64,000 nt of DNA, taken from sequence record NC_070993.1; one strand, given 5' to 3'. Both the position numbers and the translations under genes were made by a program. Positions 32,145-49,568 of this stretch are shown here, piece after piece. Below the pieces are notes generated by a model. That model was not told where the DNA came from, made no database searches, and was given only the letters and a program-made list of their open reading frames with translations. Source of the DNA: Escherichia phage vB_EcoP_IMEP8. How positions within the stretch are numbered: position 1 is the first letter of the stretch; the number at the start of each line of letters is the position of its first letter.

Positions 32145-32963
32145 TTACCAAGATTTGTCTAACCATGTCCAGTCGAACAGGTCTTCCGGAGTCTGACCAA
32201 CAAAGAGCAGCCGAGCATTCTCAAGCATCTTCTCTTCATCTTCAGTATCGAACTTCTTATAATACTCCATTCGTACTATATGATACATGGTCCATTTGTC
32301 TGTAACACCAGCCAACAACTTAGCTGCTGCTTTCTTCCCTACTCCTTGGCGTCGAAGCTGAAGCTTACCGCCCCACATAACTTCTTTACGTTCTCCACAT
32401 CCGGGGATATTATCTGTTCCATCTCCAATCAACATCTGATAGAAGAAGTTTTGCCATGAAACTAAATCAGATACATAGTGAGGAGGAACTTCTTTCTGCC
32501 TTTCTCCACAAGCCCAACGGTAGTGCCATCCGGGAGTTATCAACAAATCTTTGTCTCTAGTACAGATGATAGTGTTCTTATCTCTACGTTGCCTTTCAGC
32601 TAGTGCATCATCAGCCTCTCTCCCAAATACATCTATGTATTCATATTTACCTTTAATATAATCACCAACATTTTGCCAGTGAAAAGGTCTTTCTCCGGGA
32701 GGTCTATTTGCCTTGTAGTCTTGCTGCTTAGCAACATCGAAACGGAAGTTACCACCTTCGCTAAAGTAGAACACAACCTTACTGCAACCTGAGCGAGCAA
32801 TGATAGTATCTATCTTGTACTGAAGTCGTTCAATCATGAAATTGTAATCAACTGGAACACGTCCTGTGTCAAGGAAGGGATGCTCCTGAGTAAGAGCACC
32901 CACTTCGTATCGAAGAACGTCAGCATCCACTATAGCTACTTCAGGGAGCTTAACGTCTTCCAT
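32145..32963 (-). CDS. 5'-3' exonuclease / flap endonuclease (FEN/RNaseH-like; 272 aa)
   Basis: N-terminal acidic PIN-like segment (IVDADVL) and H3TH-like GDGTDNIPGCGERK...GKKAAAKLL motif. Confidence 0.7.
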   Translation of the reverse strand: MEDVKLPEVAIVDADVLRYEVGALTQEHPFLDTGRVPVDYNFMIERLQYKIDTIIARSGCSKVVFYFSEGGNFRFDVAKQQDYKANRPPGERPFHWQNVGDYIKGKYEYIDVFGREADDALAERQRRDKNTIICTRDKDLLITPGWHYRWACGERQKEVPPHYVSDLVSWQNFFYQMLIGDGTDNIPGCGERKEVMWGGKLQLRRQGVGKKAAAKLLAGVTDKWTMYHIVRMEYYKKFDTEDEEKMLENARLLFVGQTPEDLFDWTWLDKSW

Positions 32964-38291: not shown

Positions 38292-40136
38292 TTAGTGTGT
38301 ATGCATCCAGTTAAGTCCAATCTGACAATCAGATGCCAGAGGACATTCCATGTTCAAATACTCACCAGCTTTCTTAACACAAAGCTCAGTGTGTTCTTTG
38401 AGTTTCTGTACATCATTACGGTTCACTGAGAACTGACCCTCGTCGTGCATGTCAATTACTTTAGCACAACGAACCCCATCTTTCTCAATCCACTTGTTAA
38501 GGAACATCATAGCATATTTCATAACAACAGCACCAGCACATTGCAGGAGTGTGTTAAGTGCTTTATGAACCATAACTTTGCCAGTGGCATCTCGTCTCAT
38601 TGTAATCTTACGGCCATCAACGCCAATCAAGTATCCTTGAGCAGCTTTCTCTGTCATACGATCAATGAGGATTGCAATACATGGGTTCTCTGCTAAGAAA
38701 CGTGCTCGCATCACTGAACCTTCGTCAGCCCCACCACCTACAATTGAACCGAGCTTAGCATCACCAGCACCATAGTTGAATGCGTAGATAAACGTCTTAG
38801 CGTTGTCACGAGTAGGAAGACCAGCAAGTTTCTGGTTGTGGGAGTGGATATCACCTTCAAGGAGAATATCACGATACATAATAGCAGAAGCTAAACCACG
38901 CTCTGCCAGAGCTTTCTTAGCTGGATTATTCTCTTCGATTGCTTCAGCAAGCATATCCCTACACTCTTTAATGAGGTAGTGTGCAAGCATACGCAACTCT
39001 AATCCAGAACCATCATACCCTAAGAATACTTCTTTACCAGCGGGTATGTAATATTTGTAAGCACCTACAGGTTTATCTTTCTTCCCCGGCTTACCTTTCT
39101 CATAAATTACGTTAGTACCTTTTCGTATATAACAACCATCAGGAACAACGTTAGTAATAATGAAAGGACGAGAGTGATCATCATCTGAGTTATAGTCAGA
39201 CTCAAACAAACCGCGACACTCATGACCAAACAAACCACGGGAGGGAATATTAACCACGATACGATGTTTGAATCGAAAAGTCGGCGTAGCGCAGCTGTTA
39301 GCTTCTGCCGAAAGTTTACCATCTTCGCGTTCCTTTGCTATGAGTCCACTGATAAGACCTAGCCTGTGAGCCGCTACAACGCGTCTCTTAAGCAAACTCC
39401 CGACACTCCCTAGCTCACCCCCTAACCCTTCTTCAAGAGTCTCCTCGAGGTTTGTAGGAGCTGTAGGCCACTTGTTTGAAGTAGCTAGTGCTATCTTAAT
39501 CTCATCAAAAGTGATAGGCCTGCGTCGGTTAGGATTTAAACCTAAACCAAATACATAAGCCTTCATGTAGTTCTTAGTTTTAAACCTAAAATGCTTCTCT
39601 AAGAACTTCCTAATGTCAGCGTCAACCATCTCGGCTGTCTGTTTCTGTTTAGCATTACCTCGCATCCAAGCTGAATACCATGCTTGGTATGTTCCATACT
39701 TTCGCATATCTTTCTTGATTTCAAAAGTATTCCAAGGTTTCTTTGATACGTTAAACTCTGGAGGAAGAAAACCCTCATCCATAAGGGCTTCTTTAACTCG
39801 TGCATCTTTCGATGGGTCAAAGTCTACGTATTCAACACAGGTGAATGCTCCACCAATGTCTTCTCTCTTAAGACCAACTCTATCGCAATAGACTTGAGGC
39901 CACTTCTGTAAAGCTCCAGACTTCTTAAATGGCTTCATATAAGTAGAGCCATCTAATCTCATCTTAGGTAAGAGAGGAATCAGTTCTTTGTCAATATTAA
40001 CAATAATCTCTTTAAGGAGGTGAACATACCACCGAGCATTTCTTCGGTTGAAACTCACTCCGTGCTTCGCTTGCTTAGAGATTATATCAGCGACAGTCAT
40101 CTCTGTCAAAAATGGGAGAGCGTCCGGGTTGCTCAC
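38292..40136 (-). CDS. DNA polymerase, family A, polymerase domain only (614 aa)
   Basis: Motif A LGYDGSGLELRMLAHY, motif B RDNAKTFIYAFNYGAG, motif C VIDMHDEG; no 3'-5' exonuclease motifs in this polypeptide. Confidence 0.9.
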   Translation of the reverse strand: MSNPDALPFLTEMTVADIISKQAKHGVSFNRRNARWYVHLLKEIIVNIDKELIPLLPKMRLDGSTYMKPFKKSGALQKWPQVYCDRVGLKREDIGGAFTCVEYVDFDPSKDARVKEALMDEGFLPPEFNVSKKPWNTFEIKKDMRKYGTYQAWYSAWMRGNAKQKQTAEMVDADIRKFLEKHFRFKTKNYMKAYVFGLGLNPNRRRPITFDEIKIALATSNKWPTAPTNLEETLEEGLGGELGSVGSLLKRRVVAAHRLGLISGLIAKEREDGKLSAEANSCATPTFRFKHRIVVNIPSRGLFGHECRGLFESDYNSDDDHSRPFIITNVVPDGCYIRKGTNVIYEKGKPGKKDKPVGAYKYYIPAGKEVFLGYDGSGLELRMLAHYLIKECRDMLAEAIEENNPAKKALAERGLASAIMYRDILLEGDIHSHNQKLAGLPTRDNAKTFIYAFNYGAGDAKLGSIVGGGADEGSVMRARFLAENPCIAILIDRMTEKAAQGYLIGVDGRKITMRRDATGKVMVHKALNTLLQCAGAVVMKYAMMFLNKWIEKDGVRCAKVIDMHDEGQFSVNRNDVQKLKEHTELCVKKAGEYLNMECPLASDCQIGLNWMHTH

Positions 40137-40152
40137 TTTATACTCCTTTAAA

Positions 40153-40575
40153 TTATTGGTAAATCAAATCCGTAAATGCTTGATTATCTTCTACTACATT
40201 CAACATGGTAGCTTCATCGCTGTAAGCCCTAACCGTCCCGTTAACAACTGTCCAAGGAGGAGGTGGAGGTGGTGCATGGTTAGCCCTAGCTTCACGAGGT
40301 TGATCTCGTACTAGATGAGCCACAACCCTTTGGTTGGCGACCTCTTCTCTTTCTCGGATAGCTCTCTGGATGTAAGCCAACTTCATACCCCAAGCTTCTT
40401 CAAACTCTTGAGGATGTTTGTCACTGATAACCACATACTGACGATCAGGGATACCAGATCGAATCTCTGACAATAGTTCATGGAACAAATCCAGCTCATG
40501 TTCAGTGAGATTCATTTCGATATCATCCCACTTGAGAACTAGGAAACGGTTTTGATGTCTAGTCGGTAATGGCAT
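40153..40575 (-). CDS. hypothetical protein with poly-Pro segment (140 aa)
   Basis: ORF from track directly upstream of the polymerase gene; PPPPPP run. Confidence 0.45.
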   Translation of the reverse strand: MPLPTRHQNRFLVLKWDDIEMNLTEHELDLFHELLSEIRSGIPDRQYVVISDKHPQEFEEAWGMKLAYIQRAIREREEVANQRVVAHLVRDQPREARANHAPPPPPPWTVVNGTVRAYSDEATMLNVVEDNQAFTDLIYQ

Positions 40576-40578
40576 AGC

Positions 40579-40863
40579 TTAACCTTTTGGGAATGGCATT
40601 AAAGATTCCATAGCAGTCTTAGTTTCACTATTGATTCGTAGGTCTCGATAAGAGATAAACTTACCTTTGCTATCTCGTAACATTACATGAGTTCTAGCTG
40701 TTTTATGAGGAAGTAAAGTAATACTGGTTGGGATAGTATCAATCTCTACAGAGAAGTCATCAATAGTCTTACTATCCGCTAATAAGTAGGACCAAGTACG
40801 TGGTTTCTGCTCTGGGCGATTGGGGTATGTGTCTCGAATCTGAACCATAGCTAACTTATTCAT
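40579..40863 (-). CDS. small protein, paralog pair member A (94 aa)
   Basis: C-terminal ...TARTHVMLRDSKGKFISYRDL...AMESLMPFPKG similar to the adjacent ORF. Confidence 0.45.
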   Translation of the reverse strand: MNKLAMVQIRDTYPNRPEQKPRTWSYLLADSKTIDDFSVEIDTIPTSITLLPHKTARTHVMLRDSKGKFISYRDLRINSETKTAMESLMPFPKG

Positions 40864-40864
40864 A

Positions 40865-41116
40865 TTAAACTCCTTTAGGGAATGGGATGAGGTTTTCTAC
40901 TGCAACACGGAATTCTTTCTCTACATCTTTATTCTTATAAGAAATGAACTTCCCGTCAGCTCCACGTAGGATTACGTTAGTACGAGCTGTTTTTGGGTTA
41001 TGACTAATCTGGTTTGCAATAATATTAGCAATGCCGTGGTTATTGGTAAATTTCCATTTAACCATACGATTGTTAGACATTACATCAATGATATTTACAG
41101 ATTTTACAATAGACAT
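40865..41116 (-). CDS. small protein, paralog pair member B (83 aa)
   Basis: C-terminal ...TARTNVILRGADGKFISYKNK...AVENLIPFPKG similar to the adjacent ORF. Confidence 0.45.
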   Translation of the reverse strand: MSIVKSVNIIDVMSNNRMVKWKFTNNHGIANIIANQISHNPKTARTNVILRGADGKFISYKNKDVEKEFRVAVENLIPFPKGV

Positions 41117-41184
41117 ATTTATTACCTAAGAAGTTTAATTTGGTTTATATAAAAGAAAAGGCCACCCATTTGGGTAGCCTCATA

Positions 41185-41508
41185 TTACGATGAGCTTAAA
41201 GCTCCTTTTCGCTTAGCAGCACCAGCTGCTTTTCCAGCTCGATCACCACTTTTGCCGCCGTTTGAACGGTTTGAGCTGACTGATTCAACACGTAAGTTGC
41301 TTGACGCATTAGAGCCTCCAGACTTGACAGCTCGTTTGTGTCCAACATCTTTACCTCTGACAGCAGCTTTTCCATCGCGCTTTTCAACGATGCGACGTGC
41401 ACGGTGGCGCTGAGCATCTCCGCTCTTGCTCCCAACGCCTGTCTCACCACGGGCAATTGCGGTACGTCTTTCTTGTGCATAATCTCTCTTTCCTACATGA
41501 TCTGCCAT
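41185..41508 (-). CDS. basic Gly/Lys/Arg/Ser-rich protein (107 aa)
   Basis: Strong RBS AAGGAG 6 nt before the ATG; promoter-like motif upstream; highly basic low-complexity sequence. A nucleic-acid-binding role is a guess from composition. Confidence 0.5.
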   Translation of the reverse strand: MADHVGKRDYAQERRTAIARGETGVGSKSGDAQRHRARRIVEKRDGKAAVRGKDVGHKRAVKSGGSNASSNLRVESVSSNRSNGGKSGDRAGKAAGAAKRKGALSSS

Positions 41509-41544
41509 TTAGAACTCCTTAATATATCAGTGTACACTAAGGAG

Positions 41545-41553
41545 TATACATTA
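41545..41553 (-). promoter_or_regulatory. TAATGTATA promoter-like motif (minus strand)
   Basis: Plus strand TATACATTA; 37 nt upstream of the ATG at 41508. Confidence 0.4.
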
Positions 41554-41562
41554 TGGATGCTA

Positions 41563-41751
41563 TTAAAACTCTGCTAAGTATTTAATATCAGAGGCATATA
41601 CCTCATCAAAGGAAATAACTTCTCCATTGTAAAGAAGTTCTATTTTCAGTATACCAGAGCATTTAGTGTCTTTAGAATCAACCCTGATAGAGAGCTTATC
41701 AACTATCTGAGCTTTAATCTCTTCTATCACTAACTCTTGAGTGTTATTCAC
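41563..41751 (-). CDS. hypothetical small protein, probable GTG start (62 aa)
   Basis: Track ORF (to 41811) overlaps the upstream gene; GTG at 41751 follows GGAGGG RBS. Confidence 0.35.
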   Translation of the reverse strand: MNNTQELVIEEIKAQIVDKLSIRVDSKDTKCSGILKIELLYNGEVISFDEVYASDIKYLAEF

Positions 41752-41929
41752 TCCACCCTCCCGGTGGTACAAAATCATCAGGAACATCAATGATAGTAGG
41801 TTCTCCATCATTCATGCAGGTGTCTTCATTGAACTCTTCACACTCAAAGCACGCTCGTTCGATATTTTTGTAGAAGTCAATGGTTGCTGAACCATCACCA
41901 CAATCTCGGATAACTAGAGCTACTTTCAC
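41744..41929 (-). CDS. hypothetical small Cys-containing protein (61 aa)
   Basis: ORF from track; start overlaps PhoH stop. Confidence 0.4.
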   Translation of the reverse strand: MKVALVIRDCGDGSATIDFYKNIERACFECEEFNEDTCMNDGEPTIIDVPDDFVPPGGWSE

Positions 41930-42669
41930 TTCTCTTGTCCTTTTTCCATTGCTTTAACAATAGCTTTACAGAAACCAGAACGAACAATGTCATCTGATTC
42001 GCCATCTACTATCTCAGCGAACTCATACAGATCATGTTCATCAATAAAGTTAGTAGCCCAAGTAAGACCACTCTCACGACCACGCATATCATGCTGGTTA
42101 GTATCACCCATGCAGAACAGCTGAGAGGTCTCTCCCAATCGAGTCATGATTGAGAAGGCTTCATCTTTAGTGGTGTTCTGGAACTCATCTACGATAACAA
42201 TAGCATCGTTGAAAGAACGACCACGGAGATACTCCAGAGGTACGAACTCAATATTACTGTTACCGAGCTGGCATTCATAGAACCCTTTACCATATCGCTG
42301 AGTAATAACATCAATGATAGGCATCAGGTAAGGTTCAAACTTCTCACGCATCCCTCCCGGAAGTAACCCAAGAGAGTTTCCCATACCAACTGAAGGTCGA
42401 CTCAGAATGATCTTCTGAATCTTACCACTCTTCAGTGCATCAATAACCGTGGAAGTGATTACAAAGGTCTTACCACAGCCCGCAGGAGCGTCTGTGAACA
42501 CAACTTGTTTAGTCTTGATAGCATTGAGCAGTTCAGACTGGAACTGGTTCTGAGGGACTACAGGTTTTGCTAAAACCACCTCTTCAAACTCTCGCTTACC
42601 CTTACGAGTGACAAGTGCTTCCCTACGAAGGTCTTTCCGTGATTCTTTCCGTGATTGACGACGACTCAT
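41926..42669 (-). CDS. phoH: PhoH-like ATPase (247 aa)
   Basis: P-loop DAPAGCGKT and PhoH signature PSVGMGNSLGLLPGGMREKFEPYLMPIIDV. Confidence 0.85.
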   Translation of the reverse strand: MSRRQSRKESRKDLRREALVTRKGKREFEEVVLAKPVVPQNQFQSELLNAIKTKQVVFTDAPAGCGKTFVITSTVIDALKSGKIQKIILSRPSVGMGNSLGLLPGGMREKFEPYLMPIIDVITQRYGKGFYECQLGNSNIEFVPLEYLRGRSFNDAIVIVDEFQNTTKDEAFSIMTRLGETSQLFCMGDTNQHDMRGRESGLTWATNFIDEHDLYEFAEIVDGESDDIVRSGFCKAIVKAMEKGQEK

Positions 42670-42851
42670 TTACGCTCTCCAATTTCTTCGTAATGACATT
42701 CAGTAGTTAAACAATCTTTACAGATTGCTGTATAAACCCTGACGTTAGTAAATCGTTTGTTCTTCCCTTTGGTTGGAGAGCCTTTAGCAAGCTCTCTGAT
42801 AACCTTGTTACTTAAGTGAAGGTTTGTCCCTTCACATCTAGAGCACTTCAT
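42666..42851 (-). CDS. small zinc-ribbon protein (61 aa)
   Basis: CSRC...CKDC...C pattern; overlaps neighbours by 4 nt. Confidence 0.45.
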   Translation of the reverse strand: MKCSRCEGTNLHLSNKVIRELAKGSPTKGKNKRFTNVRVYTAICKDCLTTECHYEEIGERK

Positions 42852-43090
42852 GATTTAAAAGGGTCATAATCTAGAGAATCCCACCCATAGTCTGAACCAT
42901 TGAGGTACTCACGTTTTAATCCAAAGTTTTCGTAATAGGGTTCACTAGGAATAGTGCTCCCTTTGGTTACATCCTTAACTTGACTGGAGGAGAAAAGATG
43001 AATCCCTTCAGTAGTTCTAGCAGAAGATTTCTCTCCTTTCTTAACCACTTTCCCCTTTTTAGCCCACTCTTTAAATGTTCTATATTGCAT
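42848..43090 (-). CDS. hypothetical protein (80 aa)
   Basis: ORF from track; operon-like packing. Confidence 0.4.
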   Translation of the reverse strand: MQYRTFKEWAKKGKVVKKGEKSSARTTEGIHLFSSSQVKDVTKGSTIPSEPYYENFGLKREYLNGSDYGWDSLDYDPFKS

Positions 43091-43099
43091 TAAATCTCC

Positions 43100-43300
43100 T
43101 TACCACAATGTCCATTCAGTAAGAGACCACAGAGAGTCGCCTATGTTGGCATTGTCCTTCATGATGAGGTCTTTGATTTTATCAACATCAGTTAAGTGAG
43201 TCACATTCAAAATATCCTCAACATCTGGGGCATATTTAAATATGGCAACAATACTGTTGTGATCTTCAGCATATCTTTCTAGAACATAAACTACACTCAC
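43100..43300 (-). CDS. hypothetical protein (66 aa)
   Basis: ORF from track. Confidence 0.4.
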   Translation of the reverse strand: MSVVYVLERYAEDHNSIVAIFKYAPDVEDILNVTHLTDVDKIKDLIMKDNANIGDSLWSLTEWTLW

Positions 43301-43503
43301 AAGGCATCAACCTCTTCCAGATACCACCACTTATACTCAATACCTTTACGACCACCACCATTCATAACCCAATGCATCATCTCATCAGGTATTCCAAAAG
43401 GTTTAAGTTTTTCGTAGTTAGGCTTTTCTAAGAACACAGCTTCAAAATACTCACCATCTTGATTATACTGGTTGATCGCTCTTGTTAGTACCCATACTTT
43501 CAT
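43297..43503 (-). CDS. hypothetical protein (68 aa from internal Met)
   Basis: Track ORF (43297-43704) overlaps upstream gene; ATG at 43503 gives a plausible product MKVWVLTRAINQYNQDGEYFEAVF... Confidence 0.35.
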   Translation of the reverse strand: MKVWVLTRAINQYNQDGEYFEAVFLEKPNYEKLKPFGIPDEMMHWVMNGGGRKGIEYKWWYLEEVDAL

Positions 43504-43819
43504 GATTCTTCTCTTTATGAAGCCTATAAACAGCTGTCGCCATACAAGCAACAGCTTCGTTGTGTGGGAGATGCATCCCTGTAGAACCATCCCAATCTTT
43601 AAACTCATTGTCAAAGACTCCAGTAGGCTCTGGATACAGAGTTTGCAACTCAACCAAATCGTTAGCAACTTGTTGCCATTTATCATCAGACCAGATAGGG
43701 TCATCCAACCAGTAATACAAATAGGAATGGATGATCAATTGCCTTCTGTGCCGATTAATTACTTCAGCGGGACTTATCTCACTTCCATTTGAAGTCCTAA
43801 ATGTATTACTGTCAATCAT
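43463..43819 (-). CDS. small protein with NAD-ligase domain-Ia-like motif (118 aa)
   Basis: HSYLYYWLDDPIWSDDKWQQVANDLVELQTLYPE resembles the N-terminal Ia helical domain of NAD-dependent DNA ligases, but the protein is far too short to be a ligase. Confidence 0.35.
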   Translation of the reverse strand: MIDSNTFRTSNGSEISPAEVINRHRRQLIIHSYLYYWLDDPIWSDDKWQQVANDLVELQTLYPEPTGVFDNEFKDWDGSTGMHLPHNEAVACMATAVYRLHKEKNHESMGTNKSDQPV

Positions 43820-44040
43820 TTCACAACCTTAGATTTGAACGTTGTTGGGTGATAGTAGTGCAACCTGTTGATGGTGTGCTTGGTTTCAAGATATATCCTA
43901 CAAGAGTGACACATGACATGAGACAGACCAGTCACAGGGTTGGGTTTGAAGTTGGCGATAGGCTTCTCTTTCTTACAGAAGCTACACATTTTCTTATCCA
44001 TCTTTTCTCCTGCTAATCCTCTGAGTTGTGGGAACAGCAA
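43816..44040 (-). CDS. small zinc-finger protein (74 aa)
   Basis: CSFC...CHSC motif pair. Confidence 0.4.
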   Translation of the reverse strand: MLFPQLRGLAGEKMDKKMCSFCKKEKPIANFKPNPVTGLSHVMCHSCRIYLETKHTINRLHYYHPTTFKSKVVK

Positions 44041-44146
44041 TATTCACATACTCCACAACAAGGGCAAATTTCTACACTTGGGTCATATGCATCATCAACC
44101 GTCATCCCACACTTAGTGCAGAACACATCGTCATCTTCTTCCAACA

Positions 44147-44803
44147 TTAATTCTCCAAAGTTTTCTTCAGAGCTGCCCACGAGATTGGGTAGAGTTTAGC
44201 CATCTCTTCATCCAGAGATTGAGCAAACACTCGAACTTCGTATTGAGCGTGAGAGGAGAGTCGCTGACGACATAACTCAAACCAGCCATATAAAGAACCA
44301 GTCCACACCCACTCAGTGATCATTCCCTGAGGAAGAACAAATCGAGCTTGCTCTGGTGCAATAAATTCAATCAACTTGTCATATGCTGCTAGAGAAGCTT
44401 CATATGCATTGTTAATCAGCATTAATGCTTCAGCTCGTTCTCCATCGATGAGTTGAACCCCTGAACCTGCATGGAGGTCCGAAGGTCTCGCAAAAATCTC
44501 TTTAGGGATGAAGACTTCAACTGCTCCATCTTTATACCGCCGGGACATTTCGTTCCACGAGAATCCAACCTGATGCTTGCCCAGCTGTCTCGCAATTGCG
44601 ATAGGTGCTTTGCATCGGAAACTGACTTGTGGGTGTCGGAATGGAGTAACATGCTTCTCTCTTGCGAGGAAGTTGATGAGACGTTCATCACGTTCATTTA
44701 AATCACCTTCACGGGTTACGCCAAAGGAAACTCGAGCTGCGTTTACTACGCTATGATCACTTCCCATAGCTTCGATTAATGTTGCTTGTAATTGTTCATT
44801 CAT
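44147..44803 (-). CDS. thyX: flavin-dependent thymidylate synthase ThyX-like (218 aa)
   Basis: HVTPFRH...KAPIAIARQ...NEMSRRY aligns with the ThyX core, but the canonical RHR triad position reads KHQ. Confidence 0.7.
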   Translation of the reverse strand: MNEQLQATLIEAMGSDHSVVNAARVSFGVTREGDLNERDERLINFLAREKHVTPFRHPQVSFRCKAPIAIARQLGKHQVGFSWNEMSRRYKDGAVEVFIPKEIFARPSDLHAGSGVQLIDGERAEALMLINNAYEASLAAYDKLIEFIAPEQARFVLPQGMITEWVWTGSLYGWFELCRQRLSSHAQYEVRVFAQSLDEEMAKLYPISWAALKKTLEN

Positions 44804-44818
44804 CCGTGAATATCCTTA

Positions 44819-45094
44819 TTATTTATTGCCCAGAGCTGTATCCAAAAACGCTTTCAGGTTTGCTTCAGTCTGCATACCAGAGAGGCTATAGTGTGCACCA
44901 CTATTACGGTCAGGTACCACGAAAGCAGGAATGCTTCGTACACCATACTTAACAGCTTGTTCACGACCATCACCCTCAAGGATGTTAATCTCTTCTACTT
45001 CTACATCAAACCCCTTAACAACCTTTTCAAAGGTAGGAGCCATTGCTTTACATGGAGCACACTGATCGCTATAGAACTTAATTACTTTAGACAT
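44819..45094 (-). CDS. thioredoxin (91 aa)
   Basis: CAPC active site in thioredoxin-fold context (FYSDQCAPCKAMAP). Confidence 0.8.
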   Translation of the reverse strand: MSKVIKFYSDQCAPCKAMAPTFEKVVKGFDVEVEEINILEGDGREQAVKYGVRSIPAFVVPDRNSGAHYSLSGMQTEANLKAFLDTALGNK

Positions 45095-45102
45095 GTAAAT
45101 CC

Positions 45103-45282
45103 TTATGCAGTCAGGAGGTGAAGTAGGAATGGGATAACAACAGCTACGACAACCATGATGGTTGATGCTGTTTGAATCTCACCTTTCTTATCAGGTGTTT
45201 CTTCAATAAGCTTACCAGAAGCCCAATAAATACCACCACCGATAAAGATAGCCCAAATACCCCATACGATTGCTGATAACAT
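45103..45282 (-). CDS. small two-TM membrane protein (59 aa), not in ORF track
   Basis: Hand translation MLSAIVWGIWAIFIGGGIYWASGKLIEETPDKKGEIQTASTIMVVVAVVIPFLLHLLTA; RBS AAGGA upstream. Confidence 0.45.
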   Translation of the reverse strand: MLSAIVWGIWAIFIGGGIYWASGKLIEETPDKKGEIQTASTIMVVVAVVIPFLLHLLTA

Positions 45283-45342
45283 ATATCTATATCCTTATAA
45301 ATAAGTTCGCCCCACCTCGGGTTAGGAGACAGGGCGGAGGTT

Positions 45343-45906
45343 TTAGTAAGACACATCACCACTTGAGTGGGACATGTTGCTCTTGACAAAGTAGCAATAC
45401 TTGCCAAGACCTTCATTAATTTCTTGAAGCATACTCTGATCAACTGGATAAGTGGCTAAATCACCATCAAACTCATCCATCTTCTCAATAATACACATCA
45501 AGGTCATGCACATATCAGAGAGCATACCGTCCATGTCTAGGTCAGCATTACCCTCTGAGAACCAAGCATGAGAAAGATAATTGGCTGCTGTAGCGTCCAC
45601 TTTAACACAGTGGTAACGCATACGTTCAGCAATACGATCTCCTACTTGTCGTGCGTAATCTTCCAGCTCATCAAACATACCATGAACACCCTGAAATCCT
45701 GCACCAGAGACGTTCCAGTGGTAGTTTTTAGCTTTGATATGCAAGAGTTCCATGTTAGCTTGTAAGCAGCTCAGGATGTGTTCTAGGCTGTTTCCACTAA
45801 TCATACCCTGCATCGTTTCGAGGCGAGAGATTGAAAGCTCAGACCGGTCTAACATATTATAGTCGGCACGACCAATCTCAGGTAAGTCAAAGACATTCTT
45901 ATGCAT
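45343..45906 (-). CDS. Dps-like ferritin-fold protein (about 187 aa)
   Basis: KNYHWNVSGAGFQGVHGMFDELEDYARQVGDRIAERM matches the Dps ferroxidase helix pair (compare E. coli Dps [20 protein letters not shown]...TMAERA). Confidence 0.65.
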   Translation of the reverse strand: MHKNVFDLPEIGRADYNMLDRSELSISRLETMQGMISGNSLEHILSCLQANMELLHIKAKNYHWNVSGAGFQGVHGMFDELEDYARQVGDRIAERMRYHCVKVDATAANYLSHAWFSEGNADLDMDGMLSDMCMTLMCIIEKMDEFDGDLATYPVDQSMLQEINEGLGKYCYFVKSNMSHSSGDVSY

Positions 45907-46228
45907 TTGGGTTATCTCCATCAAGTTCAACTGAATTAGCAACGTTACGTTCGATGTTTGCCATCACCTGCTGGGTAATTACGATGCAGTTCTGTGGGTC
46001 TACTGACTTAGAACGTCCCATTTCAGGGTCATACACCTTAACTCGCTTAGCAGTTGAACCTGTGACCTGAAGAACCTTCAACAGATACCCCTGATTACCA
46101 ATAGACCAAGCAACAACATCACGATTCTTGATAAAGCGACCAAGCATATCACGATGATAAAACTGTTGCATCACCTTGGATTTTGTAATCTCTTCAGTGG
46201 GCGGGGCCACTTTACTCAAATCTAACAT
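45899..46228 (-). CDS. hypothetical protein (109 aa)
   Basis: ORF from track; variant promoter-like motif AAATGTATA 40 nt upstream. Confidence 0.45.
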   Translation of the reverse strand: MLDLSKVAPPTEEITKSKVMQQFYHRDMLGRFIKNRDVVAWSIGNQGYLLKVLQVTGSTAKRVKVYDPEMGRSKSVDPQNCIVITQQVMANIERNVANSVELDGDNPNA

Positions 46229-46300
46229 AACTCTCTCCTGTAAAATACAAATTCTTATTGTACTCTATATACATTTGAGAGTTACCATATCTACTACCAA

Positions 46301-46510
46301 TCAGTAGTAAACATTCCGAGATAGCATACAAGTACCTTCTGAGAATTCAATCCAACGATGTATGCTAACATGTTCAACTGTACCGACCAGAGCTTTCATA
46401 TTCTTTTTAGCAATACGAGCATCTTTACGGGTGTCAAATAATTTGATATTATCTTTACCTAGATGGTGTCCATCTTCCCAAACAATACGAATAGCCCACA
46501 TCTTTTTCAT
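46301..46510 (-). CDS. small protein, member 3 of tandem paralog triplet (69 aa)
   Basis: Shares ...TR..AR...K...V...SIH...S.G...VYY pattern with two upstream ORFs. Confidence 0.45.
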   Translation of the reverse strand: MKKMWAIRIVWEDGHHLGKDNIKLFDTRKDARIAKKNMKALVGTVEHVSIHRWIEFSEGTCMLSRNVYY

Positions 46511-46719
46511 CAGTAATGTACCTTTCCGCTGACATAAACACGACCAGAGGAATACTCTCTGGCCTTATGGATGCTGATACTATTGACCACGTCACCAGTA
46601 AGCATAGTCTTTTTAAAATCTCGAGCTTGTTGGCGAGTTGGTAGTGCAGTCATAGTCATACCACCTGATGCCCACTTAATCTTTGCTAACCAAAACTGTC
46701 TCATAGTGATTGGTCTCAT
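46510..46719 (-). CDS. small protein, member 2 of tandem paralog triplet (69 aa)
   Basis: Same conserved pattern, ends ...VHY; 1-nt start/stop overlaps with neighbours. Confidence 0.45.
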   Translation of the reverse strand: MRPITMRQFWLAKIKWASGGMTMTALPTRQQARDFKKTMLTGDVVNSISIHKAREYSSGRVYVSGKVHY

Positions 46720-46916
46720 TAATAATAAACCTTGCTGTTGGCAAAAAGAGCACCTTCGTTATTCACAATAGCTTTTCCTATTGTAACCTTGTTAAGTCTA
46801 AAAGTAGACTTGTATTGATTTTTGACCCTACGTGCGTGATCTCGAGTCTTAACAAAATCTACAGCTACCAAGTCTCCAGTCATGTTATCATGTACACGAA
46901 CAATCCACTTTTTCAT
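46719..46916 (-). CDS. small protein, member 1 of tandem paralog triplet (65 aa)
   Basis: Same conserved pattern, ends ...VYY. Confidence 0.45.
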   Translation of the reverse strand: MKKWIVRVHDNMTGDLVAVDFVKTRDHARRVKNQYKSTFRLNKVTIGKAIVNNEGALFANSKVYY

Positions 46917-47119
46917 TTTACTAAACCCTTCATGTAGTCATAAAGATCAATCGAAGCTTTACCCCATTCAAAGTGCTTCTTATCCATATAGCTCTTACAA
47001 GCTTCTTTACTGCTTTCGACGCATGTATCAAATTGATGACATGCTCGACCAAATGTAATAGCTTTTAATTGAACCTCGGTAGTCAAACCTTTCAGTTCTT
47101 GGAACTCTTCTTCAGTCAT
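46913..47119 (-). CDS. hypothetical Cys-containing small protein (68 aa)
   Basis: ORF from track; 4-nt overlap with the triplet. Confidence 0.4.
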   Translation of the reverse strand: MTEEEFQELKGLTTEVQLKAITFGRACHQFDTCVESSKEACKSYMDKKHFEWGKASIDLYDYMKGLVK

Positions 47120-47653
47120 TTACACACCTTTAGATGCAACTACACCTTCAGAGTTATTATAACGACCCTTCACTGCATAAGAATGTTCCCCTGCATGAGA
47201 GTGCTCAAACATCACCATCTGACCAACACGCATACCAGCACGAACTCGTAAGCTATGGTGCTTTGTTACGTTATGGAACTCAAATGTCAGCTTACTGCTG
47301 TTAAATCCAGCGTCTGCCCATCCAGCATGTAGGTGGTTCAAACCACAACGAGCCATGGACGAACGCAAAACAAACAGACTTGAGATGTTATCTGGAAGAT
47401 TAAACTCCTCCATAGAGTGAGCCAAGAAGAACTGACCCGGAGTAATAACCAAACCCTCTTCAGGAATTTTTACTTCCTTCCACTGAAGATTCTCTTTCGC
47501 ATCAATATCAACGATGCCATCAGCCTGTTCTTCAACAAGGATAGTATCACCAATACGGATATCCACACTAGCAGCGTTAACATACTTATGCTCCGCATCC
47601 AGATAGCCATTGTCAATTACATCGTGTAGTTCAACACTTCCTAGTAAACTCAT
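47120..47653 (-). CDS. dCTP deaminase / dUTPase-superfamily enzyme (177 aa)
   Basis: SVDIRIGDTILV and GQFFLAHS...SSMARCGL segments typical of the dCTP deaminase/dUTPase beta-jellyroll family. Confidence 0.65.
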   Translation of the reverse strand: MSLLGSVELHDVIDNGYLDAEHKYVNAASVDIRIGDTILVEEQADGIVDIDAKENLQWKEVKIPEEGLVITPGQFFLAHSMEEFNLPDNISSLFVLRSSMARCGLNHLHAGWADAGFNSSKLTFEFHNVTKHHSLRVRAGMRVGQMVMFEHSHAGEHSYAVKGRYNNSEGVVASKGV

Positions 47654-47662
47654 TCTTATTCC

Positions 47663-49012
47663 TTAGTTATTTGTTTCCATGTCAAAAGAAATTCCACGAC
47701 CCGCTTCATCGGCAAACCGAACTGTACGGGTTTGAGGCTGCAATACTTCAGGGTTATCAGCAACAAAACGATCAGCGAGACTGCGACTGACAGTCTCAGC
47801 TAATTCACCATGAGAAGGGATATCAAGATCACCAACAGTGGAACTCTGAGCAGAGGCTTCATCAGTCCATACAGCCCTAACAGGTGCGTTGAAACTCTGA
47901 CCAGAGAACTGGTGACGGTTAACAGTCAAACCATTTGATTGATCATTAGAACGTCTAGACAACCACCGCTCAAATGAATCGCTAGTAACACCAAGAGCTT
48001 CTTCAAAAGATGTTCTACGAGTAGAGCTTAGGTTTCGTGCCTCTTGTGCTCGACGTCTTGCAGGTACTGCAAACACCCCTTCAATTGCATTGTGTCGGTT
48101 AGGTTCATCTTCCCGACCAAGCAGATCACCACCTGTGTTAGTTGTTAAGTTTGTCAATCCTTCAGACCAATACGCATGAATCTGGCTAGAGCCGTGAAGA
48201 TTTGACATAACCTGAATCTCTTCATAAGGTATACCAAAGAATCGACTCATATCTCGGTTAACACAATACTGAGCACTTGTTGTATCTTCAAGAAGAGCAA
48301 CCTGACCTAGTTCGTTGACCAGATGACTAACCGATTGAGGTGTGGGAAGATATCGAGTTTGGGCCATGTATTGATGTGCAACTGCTGGAGAGGAAAATCT
48401 CAACACTTGCGAGTTAGGCCACTTCTTGTGAACGTATCTGATTTCACGACTAGAAACAACCACCGGGCAAGGGGCGGTCATCGCCAAGTATCCATGAGAA
48501 GTCATGAATAGGCTGTCAAGAGTCATCGCACCACGGCACATCATAGGGAAATTGTCCATTACTTCTTCAATAGAAGTAGGATAGTTAAACATGAATTGAA
48601 TTCGGGTTCCGTTCCACTGGAACTCAATAATATCAGTGAAAGTTAATTGGGAACCTTCGGCATAAGTCTCATTCGTAGCTTCAGCCAGAAGGGAAGCATA
48701 CTCGATACCTTGTGATTCAAGCCACTCTTTCACATTACTTTCAATTTCTCTTCCAAGATCTTGCCAACGATCAGTTGGGATGAAATAGTTTTGGGTTCTT
48801 GGTGCCTGTCCTCTGACAATAAAGATATCAATGTCATGTGGAGCTGTGTTATTAAGTACAGCATCACGAACAGCCCCACCAGTAATGATGGGACAAATAC
48901 CGTCTGGAATCAAGTTGTTGTCAATTAATTGTTCAATGAAGTGACGACCAACAGTGATATCAGGTTGTTGAGCAACCTTATCTTCAATTCGGTTAATCGG
49001 GATAACAATCAT
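47663..49012 (-). CDS. tRNA nucleotidyltransferase / poly(A) polymerase-family (Pol-beta-like) enzyme (about 449 aa)
   Basis: Head-domain signature ITGGAVRDAVL...HDIDIFI (GGxVRD...DxD); ATG at 49012 immediately after the upstream stop. Confidence 0.65.
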   Translation of the reverse strand: MIVIPINRIEDKVAQQPDITVGRHFIEQLIDNNLIPDGICPIITGGAVRDAVLNNTAPHDIDIFIVRGQAPRTQNYFIPTDRWQDLGREIESNVKEWLESQGIEYASLLAEATNETYAEGSQLTFTDIIEFQWNGTRIQFMFNYPTSIEEVMDNFPMMCRGAMTLDSLFMTSHGYLAMTAPCPVVVSSREIRYVHKKWPNSQVLRFSSPAVAHQYMAQTRYLPTPQSVSHLVNELGQVALLEDTTSAQYCVNRDMSRFFGIPYEEIQVMSNLHGSSQIHAYWSEGLTNLTTNTGGDLLGREDEPNRHNAIEGVFAVPARRRAQEARNLSSTRRTSFEEALGVTSDSFERWLSRRSNDQSNGLTVNRHQFSGQSFNAPVRAVWTDEASAQSSTVGDLDIPSHGELAETVSRSLADRFVADNPEVLQPQTRTVRFADEAGRGISFDMETNN

Positions 49013-49013
49013 T

Positions 49014-49568
49014 TTACATTTTCCAATATAATGAAGGTGGGTCGTAAGGGTCAAATCCTGTGAGTTCACACAAGAAAAGATAAACCTTAACAGTTAAGTT
49101 AACGTCCTGTTCACAGTAAGTAAACATATCTTCAGTGAAAGCATCCCATGCTTCCTCTTGCTCACCGTAATCTCCTTTAAGTTCCTCTAAGAACTCACCC
49201 CATTGCTTCAAACCATGACCTCTTGGGCCATGTCTAGGGTCGCCTTTCGGATACTCAGGACTATCACCAATACGGTCAGGTTTAAGATATCGACTAAGAC
49301 ACAGAGTGTCAAAGACGTTAAAATGATATTTAATCAAAGATGGATACATCTTCTTCAGAGCACAAAGGTCGAAGTCAATGATGTTATGACCCACGAGCAC
49401 ATCAGCTTCTGTAAGTTTACGAATCCCATCTTCAATTTGGTGAGGCCGATAGCCCCACCTTTCACCAGTTTCAACATCGAATATGTAAATACACCACACT
49501 TTAGTTATGTCATCGTACAGTGCATTACTCTCGATATCAAATGCAAACACTTTCTTTTTCTTTACCAC
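49014..49568 (-). CDS. stand-alone 3'-5' exonuclease (DnaQ/DEDD-like; 184 aa)
   Basis: Exo I-like FAFDIESN and downstream acidic motifs ([18 protein letters not shown]). Confidence 0.65.

Follow-up and report, generated by a model that had tools for sequence, protein, structure and literature searches.

Two collinear genes, 8.9 kb apart, appear to encode the exonuclease and polymerase halves of a T7 gp5-type DNA polymerase in a Kuravirus

The locus considered here is an 11.3 kb stretch (positions 38292–49568) within a 64,000-nucleotide (nt) window of DNA from Escherichia phage vB_EcoP_IMEP8 (sequence record NC_070993.1); all positions given are those of the window. It is bounded by two open reading frames (ORFs) on the minus strand, one encoding a family A DNA polymerase of 614 amino acids (aa) and the other a small 3′-5′ exonuclease of 184 aa, and an initial annotation of the window had described the polymerase as lacking an exonuclease domain of its own and the small ORF as a stand-alone exonuclease. 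The DNA of this stretch is 92–95% identical to that of Escherichia phages PE006, 172-1, NJ01 and Paul, among others, and it is matched by 119 phage records, 59 of which cover at least 80% of its length. Phage 172-1 is classified as a Kuravirus of the subfamily Gordonclarkvirinae, i.e., among the phiEco32-like podophages, and the source phage of the window can be assigned to Kuravirus by its sequence. The 614-aa polymerase and its counterpart in Shigella phage SGF2 are the same protein (100% identity), and both ORFs carry names in the RefSeq record of phage 172-1, viz., “DNA polymerase” and “DNA polymerase exonuclease subunit”. The two ORFs and their catalytic motifs are as follows.

38292–40136, minus strand: predicted DNA polymerase subunit, with a family A polymerase domain of the T7 gp5 type (thumb, palm and fingers) as its only domain, 614 aa
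38991–39014, minus strand: polymerase motif A (D375/E380)
38769–38810, minus strand: polymerase motif B (R443/K447/Y451)
38439–38447, minus strand: polymerase motif C (H564-D565-E566)
49014–49568, minus strand: predicted 3′-5′ exonuclease subunit, PolA-type DEDDy, 184 aa
49530–49538, minus strand: Exo I (D11/E13)
49368–49388, minus strand: Exo II (N62/D67)
49104–49118, minus strand: Exo III (Y151/D155, in YCEQD)

The polymerase ORF starts with a GTG codon at 40136, six bases downstream of an AAGGAG ribosome-binding site. PF00476 is its sole Pfam match (E-value 8.8e-23; 81.3 bits against a cut-off of 34.3), and its best sequence relative in the PDB is T7 gp5 (phmmer E-value 1.3e-32), Klenow being found with an E-value of only 4e-6. 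BLASTP aligns residues 12–134 of the polymerase with gp5 residues 217–362, and residues 271–614 with gp5 residues 412–704. The motifs A, B and C recognized in the initial annotation all align to catalytic residues of the T7 enzyme: D375/E380 correspond to D475/E480, R443/K447/Y451 to R518/K522/Y526 and H564-D565-E566 to H653-D654-E655, and the C-terminal H614 is equivalent to H704. An AlphaFold2 model of the polymerase has a predicted local distance difference test (pLDDT) score of 90.9, and the first 27 ranks of a Foldseek search initiated with this model against the PDB are all occupied by T7 gp5. The absence of exonuclease motifs from this chain is likewise borne out. PF01612 was not found in the polymerase by the Pfam scan, and a hidden Markov model (HMM) built from 23 stand-alone exonucleases and run with all filters off gave −0.6 bits on the 614-aa chain, i.e., no exonuclease domain was detected; as a positive control, the same HMM scored 109.5 bits (E-value 8e-36) on residues 2–189 of T7 gp5. 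Since residue 12 of the polymerase is already equivalent to residue 217 of gp5, the chain has no space for an exonuclease domain. The ORF is predicted to encode a T7 gp5-like family A polymerase without a covalently attached N-terminal 3′-5′ exonuclease domain. Its ratio of non-synonymous to synonymous substitution rates (dN/dS) against phage 172-1 is 0.03.

The exonuclease ORF also starts with GTG (at 49568), downstream of a GGAG. Its match to PF01612 scores 33.8 bits against a cut-off of 23.6, the only other Pfam match being a sub-threshold one to RNase_H_2, and it matches phrog_403 and phrog_38876, both titled ‘DNA polymerase exonuclease subunit’. Its best solved relative by sequence is again T7 gp5 (E-value 2e-10 among PDB sequences), and BLASTP aligns residues 11–180 with gp5 residues 5–196 at 32% identity (E-value 2e-16), with D11/E13 equivalent to D5/E7 of T7, N62/D67 to N60/D65, H118 to H123 and Y151/D155 to Y170/D174. 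The AlphaFold2 model (pLDDT 91.2) has an RNase H-like fold with the order β1-3/αA/β4/αB/β5. The top 27 Foldseek matches of this model in the PDB are to the exonuclease domain of T7 gp5 with E-values of ~1e-11, and the next fold follows at 1e-5. As the next fold class is six orders of magnitude worse and Exo III is of the Tyr type, the protein is best assigned to the DEDDy exonuclease domain of PolA. A DnaQ/epsilon (DEDDh) identity was considered and rejected, given that Exo III reads Y-x3-D and not H-x4-D and that the Pfam match is to PF01612, not to the epsilon family. The initial annotation had pointed to an Exo-I-like segment and further acidic motifs in this ORF, and these are intact; the DEDD residues are all present, and none of the catalytic residues varies among 23 stand-alone homologues with identities down to 35%. 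Its description of a ‘stand-alone DnaQ-like 3′-5′ exonuclease’ thus stands as regards a stand-alone exonuclease but not as regards the DnaQ/epsilon type, the protein being of the PolA/DEDDy type (PF01612), and the label ‘DnaQ-like’ is true at the superfamily level only. The dN/dS of the exonuclease is 0.12 against phage 172-1 and 0.04 against PE006, and from the low values in both genes it follows that both are maintained under purifying selection.

The two ORFs complement each other when compared with single-chain enzymes. In the single profile phrog_17, the exonuclease falls on positions 668–826 and the polymerase on positions 836–1233. Placed end to end, the exonuclease and the polymerase could be aligned over their full length with four natural single-chain polymerases of 597–618 aa (P0162, P0163, P0167 and P0168) with 45–47% identity. 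By part, the identity to these proteins is 41–44% for the exonuclease and 46–48% for the polymerase, and this similarity of the two values implies that both have the same nearest fused relatives. From the BLASTP placements of the exonuclease (gp5 residues 5–196) and the polymerase (gp5 residue 217 onward), the break sits in the interdomain linker of gp5. Every catalytic residue of gp5 is accounted for across the two ORFs. Alignment of both ORFs to T7 gp5, which the initial annotation had put forward as a check, reveals complementary halves with all catalytic positions matched, and we conclude that the exonuclease and the polymerase are, as judged from these alignments, collinear halves of common origin of one T7 gp5-type enzyme.

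The polymerase has ~100 residues beyond the gp5 polymerase domain, and these are made up of three insertions, all of them inside the polymerase domain.

39417–39734 (polymerase residues 135–240): insertion 1, helical, in the thumb
39030–39155 (polymerase residues 328–369): insertion 2, β-strands just before motif A
38880–38972 (polymerase residues 389–419): insertion 3, helical, just after motif A

The 11 polymerases without an exonuclease domain that were compared from the distantly split clade all have an insertion 1 of 68–111 aa, whereas the same region measures 41 aa in T7 and only 12–18 aa in the nearest fused polymerases. The other two insertions are confined to sub-lineages, insertion 2 being common to most, not all, LUZ24-like polymerases, and insertion 3 being found only in polymerases of ~606–618 aa. 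That the extra residues represent a degenerate exonuclease was considered and rejected, as they form three insertions into the polymerase domain and show no match to the exonuclease HMM. Insertion 1, when searched alone against Pfam and the sequences of the PDB, gave no match. We suggest, very tentatively, that it may be a docking module acquired for the detached exonuclease, for the phage thioredoxin or for the primase/helicase, the latter two of which are also encoded in the window (see below). If true, the replicase would be a variant of the T7 enzyme that truly consists of several subunits, and more than a gp5 cut in two.

Both fused and split arrangements occur among relatives, as the comparison with related phage genomes envisaged in the initial annotation reveals. 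Among the nearest 50 homologues of the exonuclease (35–98% identity) there are only stand-alone or partial proteins, 105–212 aa in length. The nearest homologues of the polymerase are all exonuclease-less (490–620 aa) and include the “DNA polymerase part II” proteins of LUZ24-like phages (~40% identity). An exhaustive profile search with the exonuclease alignment recovered 4,920 relatives, and the best 150 of these comprise 80 fused proteins (>520 aa, matched in their N-terminal part) and 38 stand-alone ones (≤230 aa). We also surveyed 80 IMG/VR loci with the closest relatives of the exonuclease. The exonuclease and polymerase domains lie in one ORF at 59 of the 80 loci. At 12 others (contigs L015, L041, L047, L049, L056, L057, L060, L061, L065, L079, L082 and L083), the polymerase match starts 350–870 nt past the end of the exonuclease ORF on the same strand, with the contigs taken as read, and these loci look like the adjacent fission of the PolA gene described for S-SBP1-like phages (PMC10201439, 2023). 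A single locus has overlapping ORFs (L050, with an exonuclease ORF of 478 aa and the polymerase match in another frame). At these adjacent and overlapping loci the N-terminal region of the polymerase is too short for insertion 1. The polymerase is found 9.6 kb downstream of the exonuclease at one locus, no polymerase is present within 4.6 kb of downstream sequence at another, and the remaining six loci stop at or near the contig end.

The distance between the two halves agrees with the ~9 kb given in the initial annotation, the exonuclease stop codon and the polymerase start codon being 8,877 nt apart. Directly upstream of the exonuclease gene lies that of a T7 gp4-type primase/helicase, the stop codon of which overlaps the start codon of the exonuclease (GTGGTAA), and the exonuclease gene is predicted from this overlap to be translationally coupled to that of the primase/helicase. 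The genes around and between the two halves that are discussed below are the following.

49562–51352, minus strand: T7 gp4-type primase/helicase, 596 aa, with a DnaB_C match and a weak Toprim_2 match
40137–49013, minus strand: cargo block between the exonuclease and the polymerase, 8.9 kb, with 26 genes annotated in phage 172-1
47663–49012, minus strand: nucleotidyltransferase, ~449 aa (PHROG match/172-1 annotation)
47120–47653, minus strand: dCTP deaminase (PHROG match/172-1 annotation)
45343–45942, minus strand: DNA-binding protein, 199 aa (PHROG family 3636, ‘DNA binding protein’)
44819–45094, minus strand: thioredoxin, 91 aa, with a CAPC active site (PF00085, E-value 1.2e-12)
44147–44803, minus strand: ThyX (PHROG match/172-1 annotation)
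41926–42669, minus strand: PhoH (PHROG match/172-1 annotation)
32145–32963, minus strand: FEN-like 5′-3′ exonuclease, stand-alone, 272 aa (phrog_107 ‘exonuclease’, E-value 2e-64)

The order primase/helicase, exonuclease, cargo and polymerase, with the polymerase downstream on the same strand, recurs in three annotated genomes, viz., those of the Kuravirus 172-1, of the LUZ24-like Pseudomonas phage Rembedalsseter (45 kb) and of Aeromonas phage LAh_9 (98 kb). The exonuclease gene adjoins the primase/helicase gene, to which its translation is predicted to be coupled, in all three of these distant lineages, the exonucleases of which share only 34–42% identity. The interval between the exonuclease and the polymerase is 2.1 kb in Rembedalsseter and 9.8 kb in LAh_9, and the cargo of the latter also holds dCTP deaminase, PhoH and a thymidylate synthase. 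As the gene order is common to Kuravirus, LUZ24-like and LAh_9 phages, the split is old and shared by these lineages, and genes have accumulated in the space that separates the halves.

Among the other genes of the region, the FEN-like protein matches 5_3_exonuc_N and 5_3_exonuc only weakly, with scores that do not reach the cut-offs of Pfam; it represents the third Pol I-type activity, which likewise has its own gene, and its counterpart in phage YF01 is gp27 (PMC9965538). The phage thioredoxin may act on the polymerase as a processivity partner, as was proposed earlier for the related phage Privateer (PMC7881722), and the segment of the polymerase equivalent to the thioredoxin-binding loop of T7 is ~26 residues shorter than in T7. 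The nucleotidyltransferase gene starts with an ATG one base past the exonuclease stop codon, and its product shows a weak match to the head domain of poly(A) polymerase/CCA-adding enzymes, followed by a long C-terminal region without a family match. The protein encoded at 45343–45942 has a match above the cut-off to a Pfam ferritin-like domain (E-value 2.7e-7), and its annotation as an ‘integrase’ in some records looks wrong. Upstream of the primase/helicase, a block at 52693–57552 (minus strand) encodes an amidoligase, a glutamine amidotransferase (GFAT-like), a ribosomal protein S6 glutaminyl transferase and a gamma-glutamyl cyclotransferase. Kuravirus, LUZ24-like and LAh_9-like phages show synteny over this block (L004:1386–7019; L005:1–6169), and the whole early/middle module, beyond the replicase alone, is common to the three groups.

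The polymerase gene shows some further features of its own. In PE006 (L002:2997–5412), a homing endonuclease gene breaks it close to the 3′ end and leaves ORFs of 561 and 51 aa. A homing endonuclease interrupts the gene in several metagenomic relatives as well, and many metagenomic relatives are polymerase pieces of ~450 aa with 72–74% query cover (P0064–P0067 and P0131–P0158). Mobile endonucleases or introns frequently target the polymerase gene. In the window, a perfect sigma-70 promoter sequence with an extended −10 element is located at 40081–40109 (minus strand), within codons 9–19 of the polymerase ORF. It consists of TTGACA, a spacer of 17 nt and TGaTATAAT, and matches the consensus at 12 of 12 positions, which is very unlikely to happen by chance in 15 kb. 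Its TGATATAAT and the surrounding bases are invariant in relatives, and the −35 element decays. In Bas87, KBNP1711 and PAS59, which are ~77% identical over the stretch, the 14 nt GTCGCTGATATAAT, including an ATA Ile codon, are invariant, and the −35 element reads ATAACG or TTAACG. The ATA Ile codon is rare in E. coli. The predicted transcript would start ~60 nt inside the polymerase ORF, and this putative internal promoter might act as such, drive downstream genes or prime replication.

Based on the features of the two ORFs, we hypothesize that they are the halves of an ancestral gp5-type replicase which was split at the linker, and that the exonuclease probably re-associates with the polymerase as its proofreading subunit. 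According to this proposal, a single gene for a T7 gp5-type family A replicase would have been divided at the exonuclease/polymerase linker in a phage ancestral to the phiEco32-like, LAh_9-like and LUZ24-like groups. After the fission, the halves would have retained their 5′-to-3′ order, and the interval would then have been filled by nucleotide-metabolism and small genes, amounting to 2 kb in the 45-kb phages and 9–10 kb in the 77–98-kb phages. The 184-aa exonuclease would bind the polymerase non-covalently and remove misincorporated 3′ nucleotides by a two-metal DEDDy mechanism, like the N-terminal domain of gp5. The common origin of the halves, their intact active sites, the purifying selection on them and their conserved gene order are observed, and to these the proposal adds a physical association and a proofreading activity, both of which we infer. 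For the split T7-like PolA of S-SBP1, an AlphaFold2 model has been reported in which exonuclease and polymerase remain in complex and which can be superposed on a fused relative, together with the remark that PolA enzymes depend on the exonuclease domain for their structural stability (PMC10201439). Some points weigh against our proposal: no biochemistry on phiEco32-type or LUZ24-type polymerases was found in the searchable literature; the genes are 8.9 kb apart, and their expression levels or timing may differ; and the polymerase carries a clade-specific thumb insertion, so that its architecture may differ from that of gp5.

The initial annotation had offered two options, viz., proofreading supplied in trans or a role in recombination or degradation. 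We favor the former because the small ORF is, in its fold, residues, selection and linkage to the primase/helicase, an orthologue of the proofreading domain of gp5 as distinct from a generic nuclease; it is, however, better read as the detached subunit of a split enzyme, which is also the conclusion drawn for the S-SBP1-like split PolAs (PMC10201439). A truly free-standing exonuclease, which edits 3′ ends in trans without a stable complex, acting on primers released after misincorporation, would be in line with the large distance between the two genes, with a polymerase model that folds confidently alone and with an exonuclease model that is a compact and complete domain (pLDDT 90.9 and 91.2, respectively). 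We consider it rather unlikely given the reported dependence of PolA stability on the exonuclease domain and the complex predicted for the other split T7-like PolA (PMC10201439), and it fits a shared complex that the two genes strictly co-occur and keep their order in lineages with exonucleases of only 34–42% identity. An exonuclease repurposed for recombination, end processing or the degradation of host DNA for salvage, with a polymerase that replicates without proofreading, appears improbable. The genes for the nucleotidyltransferase, dCTP deaminase, ThyX and other enzymes of nucleotide metabolism do follow in the same gene string, which speaks for such a role, but it is the primase/helicase neighbor that is conserved and the cargo genes that vary between lineages. 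Moreover, the closest relatives of the exonuclease by sequence and fold are the proofreading domains of fused T7-like polymerases, residues specific to gp5 are kept (for example, H118, equivalent to T7 H123), and a separate 5′-3′ exonuclease is already available for processing. Both of these explanations are less likely than that of a detached proofreading subunit.

That the split is merely an artefact (an assembly error, a frameshift or a pseudogene), or that the halves are rejoined by a split intein, is hardly credible, and no point in support of either was found. The 119 phage records that share the region, 59 of them over at least 80% of the stretch, and the purifying selection on two genes that each have their own ribosome-binding site argue against an artefact. 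Trans-splicing by an intein was rejected because the C-terminus of the exonuclease and the N-terminus of the polymerase both align to the linker of gp5 and of the fused relatives with no surplus residues, and an intron spanning the gap was rejected because the interval holds ~26 ordinary genes.

The arrangement can be compared with several known systems. T7 gp5 is the best solved relative of both ORFs by sequence and fold and shares all catalytic residues with them, including the Tyr at the position of T7 Y526 and the C-terminal His, and the primase/helicase of the window is like T7 gp4. The 5′-3′ exonuclease of T7 is the product of a separate gene (gene 6), and it has a separate gene in this phage too. 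However, gp5 is one chain of 704 aa, whereas two genes 8.9 kb apart are found here; the polymerase carries three insertions and a shorter segment (by ~26 residues) at the thioredoxin-binding loop, and thioredoxin is phage-encoded, whereas that of the T7 polymerase comes from E. coli. DnaQ/epsilon of Pol III also belongs to the DEDD superfamily and, as a small polypeptide of its own, proofreads for a replicative polymerase, a function that the exonuclease described here would share, but the latter has a DEDDy Exo III, belongs to PF01612 and matches the fold of the PolA exonuclease domain. The S-SBP1-like split PolAs (Czernecki et al. 2023, PMC10201439) are cut at the same exonuclease/polymerase boundary with both halves kept; their genes are adjacent and derive from a +1 frameshift, whereas ~26 genes lie between the halves here, and the present split differs from theirs only in the distance between the halves. 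Phages of the phiEco32/LUZ24 type have the same exonuclease/polymerase arrangement, from which nothing essential differs here, the phage of the window being a member of this group; the polymerases of LUZ24-like phages are shorter (~545 aa), lack insertion 3 and are separated from the exonuclease by a gap of 2 kb.

The split arrangement is already known, being annotated in RefSeq and published for phiEco32-like (Kuravirus) and LUZ24-like phages. Separate genes for the polymerase and the proofreading exonuclease were described in all LUZ24-group phages (PMC3517423, 2012), where the same separation is cited as reported for phiEco32 by Savalia et al. (2008), and a polymerase separate from both its 5′-3′ and 3′-5′ exonuclease subunits has been noted as common to all Kuravirus-like phages and their relatives (PMC9965538, 2023). 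As a finding, the split therefore matters little, with a RefSeq annotation and at least three papers preceding it. Its residual value is that of a natural test case, in which the exonuclease domain of a whole phage lineage has long been detached. This lineage, which also has a thioredoxin of its own and the thumb insertion, would be suited to the question of how proofreading is coupled to synthesis across separate polypeptides, and also to that of whether the ratio of exonuclease to polymerase expression tunes fidelity.

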